From Candidatus Scatovivens sp. (GTDB taxonomy: Bacteria > Bacillota > Clostridia > TANB77 > CAG-508): a stretch of 64,000 nt of DNA. The translations under genes and the position numbers were made by a program. The stretch covers positions 25,355 through 89,354 of the forward strand of contig JAZRKN010000009.1 in the NCBI GenBank assembly GCA_045646345.1, read 5' to 3'. The notes under the pieces are model-generated. The model was given only the letters and a program-made list of their open reading frames with translations. It had not been told where the DNA came from and searched no databases. Each line of letters begins with the position of its first letter. The first letter of the stretch is position 1. Positions 36,748 to 46,738 of the stretch are shown here, piece after piece.

Positions 36748-36822
36748 TACAAAAAATATTGTATTATATTATAAAAAACAGAAGAGGAATATTACATATT
36801 TTATACAAATACAGTAAGTATC

Positions 36823-36850
36823 TTGATTTTTAAACTAGTTGAGATATAAT
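36823..36850 (+). promoter_or_regulatory. Putative sigma-A promoter of the NRPS-HK-RR unit
   Basis: TTGATT-N16-TATAAT, 30 nt upstream of the ATG. Confidence 0.5.
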
Positions 36851-36880: not shown

Positions 36881-39800
36881 ATGAAAAAATTAGTTAGTTT
36901 AACATATCCGCAAAAATCAATACTACTTACAGAGAAGTTTTACAAAAATGCTTCTATGAATAATATTTGTGGGACAGCAATTATCGATTCTGTTCTTGAT
37001 TTTGATGCGTTAAAACAAGCAATAAAAGTTGTAATAAAGGAAAATGATGTATTCCATATTCACTTATCTCAAAAGAAAAATGAAGTAAAACAATTTATAT
37101 CATATAATGAAATTACTGATATAGAAATAATAGATATAAAAGATGAATCAGAAGTATACTTAATAGAAGATGCATTGATGGCAAAACAATTTAATTTATA
37201 TGAATCTGATTTATTTGAGTTTAAAATTTTTAGATTTGAAAATGGTGCTGGAGGTTTTTTATTAAACATTCATCACATTATTTCTGATGGTTGGACATTA
37301 GGTTTAACTTGTAGAAAAATTATGAAAGCATATTCAAATATTAAAAATAATGAAAACGGAGAAGAAGAGACTTTTTCGTATATTGATTATGCAAAAAATG
37401 AAGAAGAATATTTTAATAGTTTAAAATTTCAAAAAGATAAAGAATACTGGAATGAATTATTTTCAGAAAATATAAATCCAGCAATTTTACCTTCAGATAG
37501 TTCTGAGAAAAATACAGAATTTTCATGTTTAGGAGAAAGAATGACTTTCTCTATTCCAAAAGCCAAAATGAAAATAATTAATGAATATTGTAGTAAAAAT
37601 AAATTGACTGTATTCAATTTTCTTATGGCAATTTATTCAGTTTATATTTCAAAAATTATTGGTTCAGATGATTTTAGTATTGGAACACCAATATTAAATA
37701 GAACAAATTTTAAAGAGAAAAATATAATTGGTATGTTTGTAAATGTTGTTCCTTTTAAAGTAAAGGTAGAACAATCTGCAGACTTTATTAGTTTTGCAAG
37801 TAATCTTTCAAAAGATACTGTTTCATTATTAAGACATCAAAAATATCCATATCAAATGTTATTAGAAGATTTGAGAAAAAAAGACTCTTCAATTCCAAAT
37901 CTTTATAACGTTGTTTTGTCATATCAATTAACAAAAGCTAACAATGAAACTGAATACAAATATTCAACTAGATGGGCATTCAATAAGAATGTAACTGACG
38001 ATATGACTATTCAATTTTTGGATTTAGATGAACAAGGAATATTAACTGTTTGTTATGATTTTAAAAAATTAAAATATTCAAATGAATATGTGAAAAATAT
38101 GCATTCTAGAATTTTAGAAATGATTAATAAAGTCTTAGAAACAGAAAATATATGTGTAAAAGATATAGAAATCATTACTAAAAATGAAAGAGAAAAACTT
38201 TTAGTTGATTTTAATAATACTGAAGTTAAATATGATAAAAATAAGAATGTAATAAAAACATTTAAAGAAATGGTAAAAAAATACCCAGAGAAAATTGCTA
38301 TAAGCTTTGAAAATAGACAAATGACTTATAAAGAATTGAATCAAAAATCAAATATTTTAGCTAATAGTTTAATTAAAGAAGGAGCAAAAGCAAAAGATAT
38401 AATTGCTATTTGTGTAAATCGTTCTTTGGAATTAGCTATTGGTCTTTTAGCAATATTAAAAGTTGGAGCAGCATATTTACCAATAGATCCAGAATATCCA
38501 GAAGATAGAATTGAGTATATGTTAACAGATAGTAATGCTAAAATGATACTTTCAAATAAGAGAACTCAAAGTGCAATAAATGAAAAAATAAAAATAAAAA
38601 GAATTGATATTGGATTAGAATCTACTGTTTACAATAGAGAAAATATAGAAATTGAAGAAAAAATATTACCAGAAGATTTGATTTATTTGATATATACTTC
38701 AGGTTCTACTGGAAAACCAAAGGGTGTTATGTTAAAACACAAAAATATAATTAATTTCTTACTTGGAACAAAGGAAGTTATTGATTTTAATCCAGAAAAA
38801 ATAATGGTATCAATAACTACAATATGTTTTGATATATTCGTTTTAGAATTTTGGGGTGCATTAACTTCTGGTATGACATTGGTTTTAGCAAATGAAGTAG
38901 AACAAAATAATGCTGTGGCGTTAAATAAACTTTGTTTAGAAAATAAAGTAACTATGATTCAAACCACTCCTTCTAGATTTAAAGCATTACTTGAAAATAA
39001 ATCTGCAACTGAGTTTGTCAAAAAAATGACAGATATTATGGTTGGAGGAGAAGGACTACCAAAAGGTTTGATTGACAAGTTTGAAGGTTTAACTAATGCT
39101 AATATTTTTAATATGTACGGTCCAACTGAAACGGCAGTATGGTCTACTATTAAAAAGGTTAGAAGCAAAGATAAAATTACAATAGGAAAACCGATTGCAA
39201 ATACTAAATGCTATATTTTGGATAAAGATCAAAATATACTTCCAATATATGTTCCAGGGGAATTATATATCGGTGGGGATGGAGTTTCTAGAGGATATTT
39301 AAATAGAGATGAATTAACAAATGAGAAATTCATTAAATCTCCATTTGAAAAAAATGAGATTATTTATAATACAAATGATTTGGCTTATTATACAAATAGT
39401 GGAGAAATAGTTCATTTAGGAAGAACTGATTTTCAAGTTAAAATTAGAGGTTATAGAATTGAGCTTGAAGAAATTGAAAACGAAGTAAATAAGATACCTG
39501 GAATTTTAAATAATGTGGTAGTGGCAGATGAAAATCAAAAATATTTGATTTGTTATTATATATCTAATGAAATTCAAGATACCAATAAAATAACTGCTAG
39601 TCTACTAAAAGAACTTCCTAATTATATGATACCAGCGGTATTTTTCAAGATTGATGAATTTCCACTTACTCCAAATGGAAAATTGGATAGAAAAAAATTA
39701 CCGAAAGTAAAATTAGAAACAACAAATCTTAATGTAGGACAAACAAAGACAGAGAAAATCTTAACTAAAATTATTGCTGAAATTTTAGAAGTAGAAAAAG

Positions 39801-41185
39801 TAGATATAGATACACCTTTTATGGTATTAGGATTAGATTCTTTGGGAATTATTGAGGCGCAAACAATGCTTCTTCAATATAATTACAATTTAAATACACA
39901 AGACTTTTATAAATTTACAACTATAAGAAGTTTGGCTGAAAATATAGACAGTAATTCGAAGAGTGATAAAAATCAAGATTATCAAATACCAGAAAAATTC
40001 AAACATAATATAGAAAAAAATGATTTAGATGATTTGACTAAAGAAAATGATTCACTAGGAAATGTATTTTTGACAGGAGCAAATGGTTTTATAGGAATAC
40101 ATTTGTTAAATGAATTATTAAAAAATACAGAGTCTAAAATTTATTGCTTAGTAAGAGGTAAGAGAGAACAAACTCCAAAAGAAAGATTGATAGAACAATA
40201 CAAATTTTACTTTGGAGAAGATTTATCAAGTTATTTAGAGAGTAGAGTTATTGTTGTTGACGGTTCTATTTCAGAAAATAATATAGGATTAACAGATAAT
40301 GTGATAAAAAAATTAAAAGAAGATGTTTCAACAGTAATACATACAGCAGCTAGAGTAAAACACTATGGAGAATATAAAGAATTTGAAAGAATAAATATTG
40401 ATGGAACAAGAAATGTAGCTGAGTTTTCTTTAGAAAATAATTTTAAACTTATACATATATCTTCAATAAGTGTATCTGGAAATTATCTTGTAAAGCAAGA
40501 TAATAGAGATTTAGATTTTACAGAAAATGATTTATATATAGGACAAAATTATAAAGATAATGTATATGTTAATAGTAAATTCGAAGCGGAAAAAATAGTA
40601 TTAGACTATATGGAAAAAGGATTAGTTTCGCAAATCCATAGAATTGGAATTTTGTCAGGAAGATTTTCGGATGGTAAATTTCAAGAAAATATATCAGAAA
40701 ATGCATTTTATACAAGAATAAAGTCAATGGTTGTTTTAGGATGCGTTTCAAAAGAAATGTTAGAACAAAAAATAGAATTTACACCAGTTGATGTTTGTTC
40801 TAAAGCGATAATAAATCTTGCAAAAACGAATGTTGCAGATAATAAAGTTTTCCATTTATACAATCATAATTTTATTGAAATTAGAGAGATTGTAGAAGGA
40901 TTAAAATCTATTGGAGTTAATATTAAGATTGTTTTTGAAGAGGAATTCCAAAATAAAATATTAGAAATTTCAAAAGGAAAAGATGCTCAAATTTTATTTG
41001 GAATAATAAATGATATAAATAATACAAAAAATTCAAAGATATCTATTGACTATAATTTTTCTGTAAATATAAAATCTGATTACACACAAAAATATTTGAA
41101 AAGTTTAAAAACAGAATGGAATAAGATTGATAAAAAATATATAGAAAAAATTGTAAAATACATGAGAGAAGTTAAGTTTATTTAA
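36881..41185 (+). CDS. Single-module NRPS, C-A-T-R (condensation, adenylation, thiolation, terminal thioester reductase)
   Basis: C: HHIISDG (37271). A: YTSGSTGKPKG, NMYGPTE, GRTDFQVKIRGYRIEL, NGKLDR. T: LGLDSL (Ser 39839). R: TGANGFIG and YVNSK. Confidence 0.95.
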   Translation: MKKLVSLTYPQKSILLTEKFYKNASMNNICGTAIIDSVLDFDALKQAIKVVIKENDVFHIHLSQKKNEVKQFISYNEITDIEIIDIKDESEVYLIEDALMAKQFNLYESDLFEFKIFRFENGAGGFLLNIHHIISDGWTLGLTCRKIMKAYSNIKNNENGEEETFSYIDYAKNEEEYFNSLKFQKDKEYWNELFSENINPAILPSDSSEKNTEFSCLGERMTFSIPKAKMKIINEYCSKNKLTVFNFLMAIYSVYISKIIGSDDFSIGTPILNRTNFKEKNIIGMFVNVVPFKVKVEQSADFISFASNLSKDTVSLLRHQKYPYQMLLEDLRKKDSSIPNLYNVVLSYQLTKANNETEYKYSTRWAFNKNVTDDMTIQFLDLDEQGILTVCYDFKKLKYSNEYVKNMHSRILEMINKVLETENICVKDIEIITKNEREKLLVDFNNTEVKYDKNKNVIKTFKEMVKKYPEKIAISFENRQMTYKELNQKSNILANSLIKEGAKAKDIIAICVNRSLELAIGLLAILKVGAAYLPIDPEYPEDRIEYMLTDSNAKMILSNKRTQSAINEKIKIKRIDIGLESTVYNRENIEIEEKILPEDLIYLIYTSGSTGKPKGVMLKHKNIINFLLGTKEVIDFNPEKIMVSITTICFDIFVLEFWGALTSGMTLVLANEVEQNNAVALNKLCLENKVTMIQTTPSRFKALLENKSATEFVKKMTDIMVGGEGLPKGLIDKFEGLTNANIFNMYGPTETAVWSTIKKVRSKDKITIGKPIANTKCYILDKDQNILPIYVPGELYIGGDGVSRGYLNRDELTNEKFIKSPFEKNEIIYNTNDLAYYTNSGEIVHLGRTDFQVKIRGYRIELEEIENEVNKIPGILNNVVVADENQKYLICYYISNEIQDTNKITASLLKELPNYMIPAVFFKIDEFPLTPNGKLDRKKLPKVKLETTNLNVGQTKTEKILTKIIAEILEVEKVDIDTPFMVLGLDSLGIIEAQTMLLQYNYNLNTQDFYKFTTIRSLAENIDSNSKSDKNQDYQIPEKFKHNIEKNDLDDLTKENDSLGNVFLTGANGFIGIHLLNELLKNTESKIYCLVRGKREQTPKERLIEQYKFYFGEDLSSYLESRVIVVDGSISENNIGLTDNVIKKLKEDVSTVIHTAARVKHYGEYKEFERINIDGTRNVAEFSLENNFKLIHISSISVSGNYLVKQDNRDLDFTENDLYIGQNYKDNVYVNSKFEAEKIVLDYMEKGLVSQIHRIGILSGRFSDGKFQENISENAFYTRIKSMVVLGCVSKEMLEQKIEFTPVDVCSKAIINLAKTNVADNKVFHLYNHNFIEIREIVEGLKSIGVNIKIVFEEEFQNKILEISKGKDAQILFGIINDINNTKNSKISIDYNFSVNIKSDYTQKYLKSLKTEWNKIDKKYIEKIVKYMREVKFI

Positions 41186-41199
41186 ACGGAGGGATACTT

Positions 41200-43206
41200 G
41201 TGAGAAATAAGAAAAAGATAAAATGGAATAGTACACCAAGTAATATAATATCATTCAGATATGCTACTATAGCTTTTTTGATTATATTAGTATTAATGCT
41301 TATAATACCTAAAATTTTAAATTATGGACCTGGAACAATAAATACACCATTTGATATACAAATGTCTTATGTTTCATTTAATACACAATTTTTGATTTTG
41401 GGAATTGTAATTGTTTTGGGAATTGTATTTTTCACAAAGATTGCCCTAAGAGATATTGATAAGTGGTATAAAATATCTTTAACCAAAAGATATAGTGATA
41501 AAGAAAAAATAAAGCAAATTAGAACGAAATGCTTAAGTCTACCGTATCAATTTTATGCATTTGAGATATTAACACCGTCATTGGTAACAATATTGTTTTT
41601 ATCGTTAACGGGTAGCCATTTAAGTATAATGATTGCAAAAATTATTATATTATTAGCAGCATTTTCAATACTATTGGGTGTTGTATCATTTATATTTTCA
41701 AAAAACTTATATGATGAAATATTAACGCAAACTTATATAGAAGGTTCTGATATTGGATTTAGAGTAAGTCTAAGAAAAAGAATTATTATACTATTATTTC
41801 CAATATTTATAGCATCTATAATACTTACTGCGCTTGTGGGATATTCAGCTAGTGTTATAGAAAAAGAAGATGCTTTTTATAAAATTTACAATGAGGCTTT
41901 AGCAGAAAATTTTGATAAAGAAAAAATATATACACATGAGGAAATAAAAAACATTGCCCAAAGAATTAATTTATACACTGATACAGATAGAGTGTTTATT
42001 TTAAAACAAAACAAAACCTATGATATGGTAAAAGGGGAAAAAATAAGTAATTTTATTGTTGAGTATACGATTCAAATATCTGAACAAAATAATGGAAGAT
42101 TATATGATAGTTATGGTGTTGATACACAAGGTGCTTCTATAAAATTAAAAACAGATAATGGTGAAGTATATGTTGGAATTTTATATGATATTTATGCAGA
42201 AACTGCATTTAATTATTTAATACTAACAGCATTATTCTTATTTGGTATAAGTGGAATTATTATAACTATATTTGCGTCATCAATTTCAAAATCTTTAAGA
42301 CAAATTCATAAAGGTTTTAGAAATATTTGCGCAGAAAGTGGAAAAGAAATGCTTTTACCTGTTGTATCGAATGATGAAATTGGTGATTTGGTTGTAGCAT
42401 TCAATGATATTCAAAAATTAAATAATGCTCAAATAGAAGATATTCATAATAAACAAAATATGCTTGTTGAAAGAGAACGTTTAGCTTCTTTAGGACAAAT
42501 GGTTGGAGGAATTGCACATAGTTTAAAAACACCAATTTTCTCAATATCAGGAGGAGTGACAGGTTTAACTGATTTGGTAAATGAATTTGATGCATCAATA
42601 GGAAATCCAACTGTAAATGATCAAGATATGCATGAGATTGCAAATGATATGAGAGTATGGCTTCAAAAAATAAAAGGACAGCTATCATACATGTCTGAAG
42701 TAATAACAACTGTAAAAGGACAAGCTGTTAATCTTTCTGGTGATGATACGGTTGATTTTACAATAAAAGAATTATTTAGTCATACAAATATTTTGATGAA
42801 ACATGAACTTCAATCAGCTTTGGTAACATTAAATATTAAAAAGGAAGTTGATAATAGTATAATTTGAGAAGGAAATATAAATAGTTTAGTACAAGTATTA
42901 AATAATTTAATCTCTAATGCAATACAAGCATATAAAAAAGCGCCAAATAAATCTATTGATTTAAGTGCTAAAATAAAAGATAATAATATTGTTATTTCTG
43001 TTAAAGATTATGGACCAGGAATTCCAGAAAATATTAAAGATAAATTGTTTAAAGAAATGATAACAACAAAAGGAAAAGAAGGAACTGGGCTTGGAGTGTT
43101 TATGTCATATTCAATGATAAAAGCTAAATTTAATGGAGATATAAAATTAGATACTTCAAGTAACGGAACAGAATTTACGATATATTTACCAATGAATAAT
43201 AAATAA
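41200..43206 (+). pseudogene. Membrane sensor histidine kinase interrupted by one in-frame TGA at 42865-42867
   Basis: Multi-TM N-terminus, HAMP (NDEIGDL..AFN), H-box IAHSLKTP. The same frame continues after the TGA with NLISNAIQA, DYGPGI, TTKGKEGTGLG and GTEFTIYLP to TAA at 43206. Confidence 0.85.
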
Positions 43207-43222
43207 TTTGTGGAGGTATACA

Positions 43223-44290
43223 ATGAGATTATCAGCACAGCAAAATGAAAACTTAAATGAAAAGAAAAATTATAAAATTATAGCAGTAGACGATGAGATT
43301 GGAATCATAGATTCTTTATCTGTATTTTTAAGACATTCAGGATATACATTAGTTGGATGTACAGATCCTTATGAAGCTATTGAAAAAGTTAAAAATGAAA
43401 AATATGATTTGATGCTATTAGACTTTATGATGTCACCAATTCATGGAGATACTGTTGTTGAAGAAATTAGAAAATTTAATAAAGAATTATATATAATTTT
43501 ATTAACTGGTCACAAAGACTTAGTACCACCACTTGAAACTATTAAAAGATTATCTATTCAAGCATATTGTGAAAAAGAGGATAAATTTGATCAATTATTA
43601 TTGCTTATAGAATCTGCATTTAAATCAATAGAACAAATGCAAACAATAAAAGAAATGAATGAAGAATTAAAAGCTTCAAAAGAAAAAATTGAAAAAGCAT
43701 ATTTAGAAACAATCCAAATGTTAAGATATACAGTTGAAGCAAAAGATACTTATATAAGAGGACATTCTGATAGAGTTTCTGCATATTCTGTTTTAATAGG
43801 ACAAGAACTGGGTCTTTATGATAAGGATATTGCAACTTTGAGAATAGGTGGACTTTTCCATGACATTGGTAAAATAGGAATATCAGATACCATTTTATTA
43901 AAACCATCAAAGTTAACTGAAGAAGAATATAGCGAACTAAAAAAACATCCATCTATTGGAAAACAAATTGTATCAACATCTTCGATTTTTAGAGATATTG
44001 TTCCAATTATTTATTCTCATCATGAAAGATTTGATGGTAATGGGTATCCACAAAAATTAAAAGGAGATCAAATTTCATTTTTGGCAAGAATCGTGAGTGT
44101 TGCCGATGCATTTGATGCAATGACTTCAAGACGTTCTTATAGAGATGAGATGGATTTAGAATATGTTACAAATCAAATAAGAGAAGGTGCGGGAACACAA
44201 TTTGATCCAGAAGTTGCAAATGTAATGCTAAATATATTAACAAATAAATTAGATAAAATAAACGAAATAAGAAGTAAATTTCCTTGCTAG
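43223..44290 (+). CDS. Response regulator with REC + HD-GYP cyclic-dinucleotide phosphodiesterase domain
   Basis: AVDDE, LLDFMM, LLTGH; HSDRVS, HDIGK, HHERFDGNGYP, ADAFDAMTSRRSYR. The ATG at 43223 follows GGAGG. Confidence 0.93.
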   Translation: MRLSAQQNENLNEKKNYKIIAVDDEIGIIDSLSVFLRHSGYTLVGCTDPYEAIEKVKNEKYDLMLLDFMMSPIHGDTVVEEIRKFNKELYIILLTGHKDLVPPLETIKRLSIQAYCEKEDKFDQLLLLIESAFKSIEQMQTIKEMNEELKASKEKIEKAYLETIQMLRYTVEAKDTYIRGHSDRVSAYSVLIGQELGLYDKDIATLRIGGLFHDIGKIGISDTILLKPSKLTEEEYSELKKHPSIGKQIVSTSSIFRDIVPIIYSHHERFDGNGYPQKLKGDQISFLARIVSVADAFDAMTSRRSYRDEMDLEYVTNQIREGAGTQFDPEVANVMLNILTNKLDKINEIRSKFPC

Positions 44291-44313
44291 ATAAATACAA
44301 AAATAATATAAGA

Positions 44314-44351
44314 AATAAGAGTATAACCGAAAAAATATACTCTTATTTTTT
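44314..44351 (+). terminator. Intrinsic terminator
   Basis: aataagagtata...tatactcttattttttt. Confidence 0.8.
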
Positions 44352-44418
44352 ATGTAATAAAATGTCAAAAAAAGTTATAAAAATGATAGGAATTAATTAA
44401 TATTTTGCACTATTTTTC

Positions 44419-45865: not shown

Positions 45866-46738
45866 GTGAAATCTATGGAAAAATCAATAACAGTGGTTGG
45901 TGGAGATTTACGTATAGTAAAACTTATAGAAATGTTAGATAAAGATGGCTATAAAGTATTTACTTATGGTTTAGAAAATTCAGAAGAATTATTAAATTTA
46001 GAAAGTGTTGAAATGTGTCCAACATTAGAAGAAGCGGTTAACAGTTCTAAGATTGTAGTTGGTCCTATTCCATTATCAAGTGATAGAAAAAGACTTTCAA
46101 CACCATTTGGAAGAAATAGTGTTGAACTTACAGAATTTGTAGATTGCTTAAAAGATAAATATTTAATTGCTGGAAATATTAATATCAGAGAAGAATTAGA
46201 GGCTAAAGGGGTTCAATTTACTGATTTATTAAAAAGAGAAGAATTTTCAGTATTAAATACAATTGCGACTGCTGAAGGAACAATTCAAATAGCAATGGAA
46301 GAAACACAAAGAACAGTTCATGGTTCAAATGTACTTGTTATGGGATTTGGTAGAATTGGTAAAGTTTTAGCAAAAATGTTAGATGGAATTGGCGCAAAAG
46401 TATACTGTGAAGCTAGAAAAAATGAAGATATTTCTTGGATTAAAGCTTATGGATATAATCCAGTTCATCTAAATGATTTAAATGAAAATTTAAATAAATT
46501 TGATATAATTATTAATACAATACCATTCCAAATTTTAGATGCTGAAAGACTAGATTTAATAAAAAAAGAATCAGTTATAATCGACTTGGCATCTAATCCT
46601 GGTGGTGTTGATAGAAAAGCGGCAAGAGAAAGAGGAATAAAAGTTATTTGGGCATTATCTTTGCCTGCTAAAGTAGCACCTTTAACATCTGCTGAGTTTA
46701 TAAAAGAAACATTATATCATGTCTTAAAAGAATTATAA
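45866..46738 (+). CDS. dpaA: Dipicolinate synthase subunit A
   Basis: VVGGDLR, NTIATAEGTI, GFGRIGK, IDLASNPGGVD, LSLPAKVAP. Confidence 0.93.
   Translation: MKSMEKSITVVGGDLRIVKLIEMLDKDGYKVFTYGLENSEELLNLESVEMCPTLEEAVNSSKIVVGPIPLSSDRKRLSTPFGRNSVELTEFVDCLKDKYLIAGNINIREELEAKGVQFTDLLKREEFSVLNTIATAEGTIQIAMEETQRTVHGSNVLVMGFGRIGKVLAKMLDGIGAKVYCEARKNEDISWIKAYGYNPVHLNDLNENLNKFDIIINTIPFQILDAERLDLIKKESVIIDLASNPGGVDRKAARERGIKVIWALSLPAKVAPLTSAEFIKETLYHVLKEL

Follow-up and report, generated by a model that had tools for sequence, protein, structure and literature searches.

An NRPS, membrane histidine kinase and REC-HD-GYP unit of Candidatus Scatovivens sp. as a probable make-and-sense circuit, probably disabled in this strain

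In a 64,000-nucleotide stretch of DNA from Candidatus Scatovivens sp. (contig JAZRKN010000009.1 of assembly GCA_045646345.1, positions 25,355 to 89,354; this whole stretch is called the window, and coordinates are counted from its first letter), three consecutive genes encode a non-ribosomal peptide synthetase (NRPS), a membrane histidine kinase and a response regulator joining a REC domain to an HD-GYP phosphodiesterase domain. The question raised by this locus is whether the three genes form one circuit, in which the first protein makes a signal, the second senses it and the third answers through second-messenger turnover, as a first-pass annotation had proposed. From comparison with relatives, it was considered fairly probable that the unit is such a make-and-sense (autoinducer-type) circuit, probably disabled in this strain. 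The three genes are the following:

36881-41185, + strand: NRPS gene, 1434 aa (Pfam Condensation, AMP-binding, PP-binding and NAD_binding_4), a single module of condensation, adenylation, thiolation and reductase domains (C-A-T-R); C motif HHIISDG, T motif LGLDSL, R motifs TGANGFIG / SSISVSG / YVNSK
41200-43206, + strand: membrane histidine kinase gene, frame broken by an in-frame TGA
43223-44290, + strand: REC-HD-GYP response regulator gene, 355 aa counted from ATG; D23/D24, D67, T95 and K118 intact; H213-D214; HHERFDGNGYP; R304-x-x-R307

The gene coordinates bore out the description of three co-oriented genes, all of them on the + strand, with gaps of 14 nt (NRPS/kinase) and 16 nt (kinase/REC-HD-GYP) and a GGAGG/GGAGGG ribosome site in each gap. 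The gene content of the unit likewise agreed with what had been described, as no transporter, tailoring enzyme, phosphopantetheinyl transferase (PPTase) or DNA-binding regulator was found within the three genes.

The association of the NRPS with the kinase was consistent across relatives. Such an NRPS was present in 47 of 60 relatives, 46 of which had the adjacent kinase on the same contig, the pair being apparently split across contigs in G056. The kinase adjoined all the 40 NRPS loci fetched first (one with an assembly gap inside the kinase) and all five further R-terminated NRPS loci, that is, 45/45 overall, and the two genes were still adjacent in G044 and G058, where the gene order was reversed. 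The regulator lay inside the locus in 30 of the 47 relatives, comprising 20/23 of family f1, 4/4 of f4 (with intervening genes) and 6/6 of f5. Moreover, the joint loss of NRPS and kinase was confirmed in genus g1, where both genes appeared in 23 of 36 genomes, neither in 13 and only one of them in none. The best kinase-profile match in these 13 cassette-less genomes had an E-value of 1.6e-23 vs. 1e-137 or better in two true controls, and searches of 10 of them detected no Condensation domain. The cassette moves as a block. Its ancestral site is htrA / cassette / DUF975 / tex, with htrA as the usual divergent neighbour, and in the window's own genome (G000; 1.79 Mb, 27% G+C) htrA lies next to a DUF975-like gene on contig C14, all three cassette genes being located at polC instead. 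In several cassette-less genomes the regulator remains at the ancestral site directly beside htrA, and the polC site of G022 is empty in the same way. Furthermore, a search starting from the kinase scored 399 Clostridia genomes, 44 of which had matches, and 40 loci from 35 genomes were fetched. A kinase with a REC-HD-GYP gene was found at 26 of these loci, spanning seven families outside the order, with an NRPS or its remnant directly upstream in 21, a PilZ-GNAT gene upstream in three and a contig edge in two, while two further loci had the NRPS and kinase without HD-GYP. As a separate observation, a second class of output was seen at loci L135, L186, L228, L092 and L187, where the kinase lies beside a REC protein of ~330 aa whose C-terminal domain is unannotated, whether or not an NRPS is present; the kinase of L092 has an H-box of the AHDIN type, and the other four match the core weakly.

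The relatives' NRPSs presented many other adenylation pockets, in one or two modules, and were grouped by pocket class, where the labels Thr, Ser and Val are those that we take the codes to stand for. In a set of 19 single-module systems, sensor and A domain had a partial Spearman correlation of 0.61 when kinase core and PolC were controlled for, and kinase core and A domain one of -0.04; kin are not independent in this set. In approximately unbiased (AU) tests, for which the groups were named post hoc, after the trees had been seen, the sensor groupings were rejected on core data with P-values of 1.7e-60 and 0.005, and the core groupings were rejected on sensor data with P-values of 0.002 and 0.001. 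In particular, the pair G000-G036 compared to the pair G000-G020 showed identities of 85% vs. 84% in PolC and 80% vs. 76% in the kinase core, with 59% vs. 21% in the sensor and 65% vs. 26% in the C domain. When nine systems were added, the sensor tree required 8 pocket-class changes and the core tree 12 (the minimum being 7); the added Gly and DIFL systems joined their own pocket class as predicted, while the prediction was borne out weakly for DLTK (support of 52) and failed for Thr. The correlations and AU tests show that the sensor has had another history than the core, one that follows the NRPS. This co-variation supports a putative matching of ligand and receptor, with which it is compatible, and contiguity alone could also yield joint transfer.

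Regarding the regulator, the REC site (DD, D, T, K) was intact in all 22 full-length regulators of cassette-bearing g1 genomes, and 9 of 10 cassette-less g1 genomes had a regulator REC without the Thr and the acidic pair. The median identity in cassette-bearing vs. cassette-less genomes was 85% vs. 40% for REC and 73% vs. 69% for HD-GYP. Such decay of REC where the kinase is missing marks the REC-HD-GYP protein as the cognate partner of the kinase in f1. The window's regulator presented the HD, HHExxDGxGYP and Rxx(K/R) motifs of HD-GYP phosphodiesterases acting on cyclic di-GMP (c-di-GMP), and its Rxx(K/R) motif aligned with that of PmGH. In the available part of a published study (10.1101/600031), Rxx(K/R) is given as the guanine-reading motif, with Q or N variants for cyclic GMP-AMP (cGAMP). 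The canonical motif of this regulator points to c-di-GMP as its predicted substrate. G000 also encodes a diadenylate cyclase and a REC-GGDEF protein with the motif GGDDF (C6:70138-71091), which is a candidate cyclase opposing the HD-GYP protein. The idea of a genome devoid of any diguanylate cyclase was rejected, since the GGDDF protein had been missed by a motif scan and was found by a profile search. A partial GGDEF match, similar in size to that of this protein, recurs across f1, f4 and f5.

The prediction of the signal was based on the NRPS, whose C, T and R motifs are intact and whose pocket residues are as follows:

D651, I652, L655, Q694, M720, G722, M745, V753 and W754: glycine-type A-pocket residues, at positions assigned by what we take to be the GrsA scheme

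The window pocket DILQMGMVW was identical at 6/9 positions to DILQLGLIW of PDB 5U89 and at 7/9 to DILQLGVVW of 4ZXH, the first and third matches for the pocket region, respectively, with conservative changes in the other residues. According to the available part of PMC10510592, glycine is the substrate of DhbF module 1 (5U89) and the AB3403 site holds glycine. The DILQ-x-G-x-x-W pocket of the window NRPS is of this glycine type, from which the loading of glycine is predicted. In a one-module NRPS, an N-terminal C domain implies an acyl donor by established NRPS logic. The closest PDB match of the R domain was 6VTJ, followed by AusA, which releases aldehydes, and MxaA, which releases alcohols; because of these last two matches, both N-acyl-glycinal and N-acylethanolamine are possible, and the predicted product is one of these fatty-acyl-glycine derivatives. 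Elsewhere in G000, genes for an AcpS-family PPTase, a ketoacyl synthase and weakly A-like ligases were found. The NRPS scored far under the NCBIfam cut-offs of AusA (778 vs. 2500) and MxcG (513 vs. 2300). In NRPSs outside the order, release may be carried out by a thioesterase or by another kind of Rossmann-type domain, one related to PDB 9E4S. On a side note, the NRPSs of L236, L243, L242, L244 and L246 end in a Rossmann-type domain related to 9E4S and to the PigE N-terminus, not in an R domain of the short-chain dehydrogenase/reductase (SDR) type.

The kinase comprises six predicted transmembrane (TM) helices, a PDC/Cache-like extracytoplasmic domain (~aa 216-330), a HAMP-like linker, a DHp domain with His440 and HATPase_c, and the outer loop of its sensor is conserved (IPxxLNYxPxTINxxFDxQ; loop residues P37, N41, Y42, N48, F51 and Q63). 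No Pfam family was found for aa 1-555, and the window sensor did not match PF16927 (HisKA_7TM sensor), which was matched by the kinases of two-module and f3 relatives, whose HisKA_7TM-PAS sensor is carried on the same or a related kinase core. The window-type sensor was matched by 205 representatives at 50% clustering. Fold searches with the complete kinase model found nothing at E <= 0.001 in one case and mostly helical hairpins in the other, and only the extracytoplasmic domain matched PDC/PAS folds (3CWF, Z 9.2; 4EXO, Z 8.9); an atlas search of the sensor yielded only unnamed clusters and Cache-like leads, and a plasmid search matched the kinase core only. In this strain, the reading frame is interrupted at the following position:

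42865-42867, + strand: premature TGA at kinase codon 556, between the His-bearing DHp part and HATPase_c

This codon severs the HATPase_c domain from the kinase, and because of it the circuit of this strain is probably deaf and its kinase inactive. The orthologs L001-L004 (the intact kinase of L001 being 87% identical) read TTA (Leu) at codon 556, as did 4/4 sequencing runs (three studies) of the same species-level sequence. These runs differ from the window at several nearby sites, so that none of them represents the source strain; the stop is thus peculiar to this strain or its assembly, and it could be an assembly error. Read-through of TGA or an alternative code was rejected, as TGA ends 15 of 823 long open reading frames (ORFs) and the other strains have TTA; no tRNA with a TCA anticodon was called at the ARAGORN default cut-off, with low-score selenocysteine (SeC)-like calls only at a lowered cut-off. 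Pieces of the sensor TM region differed by ~3-4% from other strains (e.g. 28/824 bases) vs. <1% in most other pieces of the same species, and at 41310-41853, over the sensor TM region, the window departs from four other strains along a tract in which most changes are synonymous. Of the 24 sensor differences listed, beyond which the list has 315 further rows, 21 were synonymous. This pattern points to a recombined tract.

In family f45, the slot of the NRPS was occupied by a 543-aa protein (L247:3854-5485, L245 and L249), followed by the kinase and a REC-DUF3369-HD-GYP gene. Its model, with a predicted local distance difference test (pLDDT) score of 90, showed a YcgR-like PilZ part (PilZN-PilZ) with RxxxR and DxTxxG motifs and a tandem GNAT; the protein had no match in Pfam or NCBIfam, and FeeM/PilZ clusters matched it only at an atlas score of <= 0.82. 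An acyl-transfer fold thus stood in the upstream slot at 24/24 evaluable loci, together with a c-di-GMP-binding fold in three. GNAT folds include acyl-amide signal synthases but also ordinary acetyltransferases. From the model, PilZ-GNAT in the synthase slot could be part of a possible c-di-GMP feedback loop. The available part of 10.1101/2020.02.11.943704 made no mention of GNAT or acyl.

As a mechanism, the NRPS would couple glycine to a fatty acyl group, and reductive release would yield N-acyl-glycinal or N-acylethanolamine, which would leave the cell passively. The adjacent membrane kinase likely senses this product, probably at the outer loop or the TM bundle, and would phosphorylate the REC-HD-GYP protein, predicted to degrade c-di-GMP; the response may depend on cell density. 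The differing A-pocket codes and module numbers of relatives would then represent lineage-specific signal 'dialects', as agr pherotypes do. The claim of an NRPS signal sensed by the kinase with a second-messenger output was partly supported: the comparative tests (synteny, co-phylogeny of sensor and NRPS, joint loss, and REC decay in the absence of the kinase) were mostly in its favour, while the regulator is unlinked in some relatives and the circuit of this strain is probably deaf.

Several observations weigh against this circuit. The REC-HD-GYP gene lay outside the locus in 17 of the 47 NRPS-bearing relatives (all f2, all f3 and three of f1), and in the four f3 regulators examined (L180, L181, L184 and L185), unlinked from the NRPS-kinase pair, the acceptor Asp is replaced by Asn. 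G001 had two sensor-type kinases without a neighbouring NRPS, and 12 of the 40 loci fetched from the kinase (f53/f29/f46) had a related core with other sensors or HTH regulators and no NRPS beside the kinase. The expected co-phylogeny did not extend to the Thr-pocket class, whose sensors are scattered in three places of the sensor tree instead of forming one clade, and the sensor of G041 (Ser pocket) groups with Thr systems. The DLTK pair was supported by only 52, the PolC tree was rough (f2 nests in f1), and across families the sensor identity was barely higher in same-pocket pairs (median of 0.281, n=32) than in the others (0.254, n=262). Moreover, NRPS and sensor are contiguous, and therefore one recombination tract could move both without any match to a ligand. 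The nine decayed RECs represented only two clades on the HD-GYP tree, and the cassette-less G022 keeps an intact REC, which reduces these cases to ~2-3 events, not 10. On the side of the second messenger, the GGDEF match of the REC-GGDDF protein covers only positions 5-92 of 161, and no PilZ domain was found in G000; the three PilZ-GNAT cases belonged all to one genus, with a distant homolog in G082 lacking an adjacent kinase.

Some of these points fit another explanation, which was considered unlikely, namely that the kinase-regulator pair responds to some other, unrelated cue and either governs the NRPS or is simply carried along with it, the product being an effector (e.g. a protease-inhibiting aldehyde or a host-directed lipid amide) and the co-variation arising from contiguous recombination tracts. 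Physical adjacency explains the block swaps, the Thr-pocket sensors are not monophyletic, the PilZ domain of the GNAT protein found in place of the NRPS is consistent with a synthase acting as a c-di-GMP output, the best R-domain matches include the aldehyde-releasing AusA, and htrA is the usual divergent neighbour. However, neither joint loss nor fast sensor change is needed under this explanation, yet both genes are lost together in all 13 cases in g1 and the sensors of G000 and G020 have diverged to 21% identity with 76% in the core, and the regulator has no DNA-binding domain for direct control of the NRPS. A self-monitoring role, in which the kinase would detect, within the membrane, what its own cell has made, for feedback or protection and with no density-dependent function, fits all the co-evolution results equally well, and it agrees with the lack of an exporter in the unit and with the predicted lipophilic nature of the product, which may be a reactive aldehyde. 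It was nevertheless judged decidedly improbable, with no immunity or efflux gene linked, and with a pocket allelic diversity, second kinases and solo sensors that better suit signalling between lineages.

Clostridial Spo0A is phosphorylated directly by kinases, and it might be the main target of this kinase, with the product timing sporulation and the HD-GYP regulator being secondary. In favour of this, only one other sensor-kinase-like gene was found in G000, together with a Spo0A-like REC protein, and the regulator is unlinked in f2 and f3, but REC decay in the HD-GYP protein is specific to genomes lacking the kinase. This option was judged very improbable. Finally, a chance co-location of unrelated genes, for which the housekeeping neighbours of similar G+C content could be invoked, is effectively refuted by the synteny counts, the unit appearing at several genomic sites and in seven families outside the order, and it deserves next to no credence.

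Compared to known systems, the make-and-sense unit resembles RpfF/RpfC/RpfG in wiring and agr in variation, and it is a member of neither. RpfF, RpfC and RpfG constitute the Rpf/DSF (diffusible signal factor) quorum sensing of Xanthomonas, where, as in this unit, a synthase and a membrane kinase are combined with a REC-HD-GYP output acting on a second messenger, a lipid-derived signal being predicted in the unit. The first-pass annotation had invoked this logic, and the likeness held for the wiring and the REC-HD-GYP output but not for the components. RpfF is an enoyl-CoA hydratase, in contrast to the C-A-T-R NRPS, and RpfC is a hybrid kinase with REC and HPt, while the kinase of the unit is a plain DHp-CA protein that ends with HATPase_c and whose sensor is not related to that of RpfC; the signals differ as well, an N-acyl amino aldehyde or alcohol being predicted here. 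Among agr pherotypes of Firmicutes, the signal gene and the sensor half vary together, and the kinase core and the regulator are conserved. Similarly, the signal-making gene and sensor of the present unit co-vary against a conserved kinase core, except for the Thr class. The agr components compared were AgrD, AgrB and the LytTR-type AgrA, as given in the available part of PMC12180512. None of them was found among proteins of >= 80 aa in the unit, whose signal would be non-ribosomal, and with intergenic spaces of only 14 and 16 nt, a small peptide gene could not fit within it.

The NRPS itself shares the C-A-T-R order with MxcG and an SDR-type R domain with the reductase-terminated NRPSs (MxcG, AusA, MxaA and 6VTJ), but it is a single module with a Gly pocket and lies under the AusA and MxcG cut-offs. 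Dipeptide-aldehyde NRPSs of gut Clostridia, and ruminopeptin, were reportedly described by Guo et al. in 2017 and by others, and to our knowledge the products of reductase-terminated NRPSs are on record as siderophores or protease inhibitors for which no dedicated receptor is known. On the other hand, Chang et al. reportedly presented, in 2021, fatty-acid-amide clusters of Clostridia in which C, T and A are separate, stand-alone proteins. There too, gut Clostridia use NRPS parts to make N-acyl amides with a possible host activity, but the present unit has one fused protein, a reductive release and a linked receptor and phosphodiesterase.

The unit is surrounded by housekeeping genes of similar G+C content, with polC/DUF1294 on one side and a TPR gene/dpaA on the other, and the following features were found next to it:

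36792-36807, + strand: direct repeat TTACA-N6-ATACA with an 11-bp period, 5' of the -35 box, largely conserved in sequence in seven aligned upstream regions
36823-36850, + strand: promoter-like site of the sigma-70 type, TTGATT-16-TATAAT, with hexamers kept in orthologous upstream regions
44306-44355, + strand: A/T-rich terminator-like hairpin with a T run, found by folding

The promoter-like element reported upstream of the NRPS was corroborated by conservation, as the -35 and -10 hexamers are kept in 7/7 aligned upstream regions (the -35 being TTGATT in six and TTGCTT in one), although such a pattern occurs at chance level by count (77 found vs. 76.3 expected). The TTACA/ATACA repeat is a possible operator for a trans-acting regulator encoded elsewhere. 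The downstream terminator was recovered too, its hairpin having a folding energy of -19.5 kcal/mol (z of -9.35, with 0/200 shuffles equally stable), while a scan for GC-stem terminators detected nothing there. An Rfam search of the window gave no match, and a c-di-GMP-I riboswitch search gave no match in any control genome. The dpaA-like gene (45866-46738) has no dpaB next to it, the following ORF being uppP-like.

A frame anomaly was observed in the relatives. The suggestion that many of them have decaying cassettes was rejected, as 21/21 split genes were full length with CGGN read as one Gly, whereas control words restored at most 2 of the 21 split kinase, NRPS and regulator genes. The loci with split genes include L130, L094, L077, L070, L080, L073, L059 and L129; PolC codon 590 is affected in L168, and the same extra C was present at one PolC codon in four genomes. 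In G000, 7 of 56 in-frame CGG sites showed the CGGN signature, no tRNA-Arg(CCG) was found, and a divergent tRNA-Gly (G000:C1 complement 228598-228671) has the loop CUUCCGA and a mismatched anticodon stem, where UCCG could pair with CGGA. The sequences appear to show four-base decoding or a +1 slip at CGG.

Few autoinducer chemistries are known in Clostridia, and none was found to be made by an NRPS with its own kinase. The literature searched held no description of a unit of NRPS, kinase and REC-HD-GYP, although subscription papers or supplements could hold one. A broader proposal is put forward tentatively and is rather doubtful, namely that Clostridia have a widespread and so far undescribed class of quorum sensing, whose synthases, NRPS or PilZ-GNAT, would be interchangeable and would make lineage-specific N-acyl amino aldehydes or alcohols, perceived by a new six-TM receptor family and answered by c-di-GMP turnover, the glycine dialect of the window being an N-acylethanolamine, a class to which endocannabinoid-like lipids of the host belong, made de novo by an uncultured gut bacterium. 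If the make-and-sense circuit holds true, a common class of orphan gut NRPSs would acquire a signalling role, a new receptor family would be defined, and testable ligand-receptor pairs would be predictable from A-pocket codes. Furthermore, abundant uncultured gut Clostridia would release lipids of the N-acyl-glycinal/N-acylethanolamine type, which hosts may sense, and this strain would be a natural signal-deaf producer.

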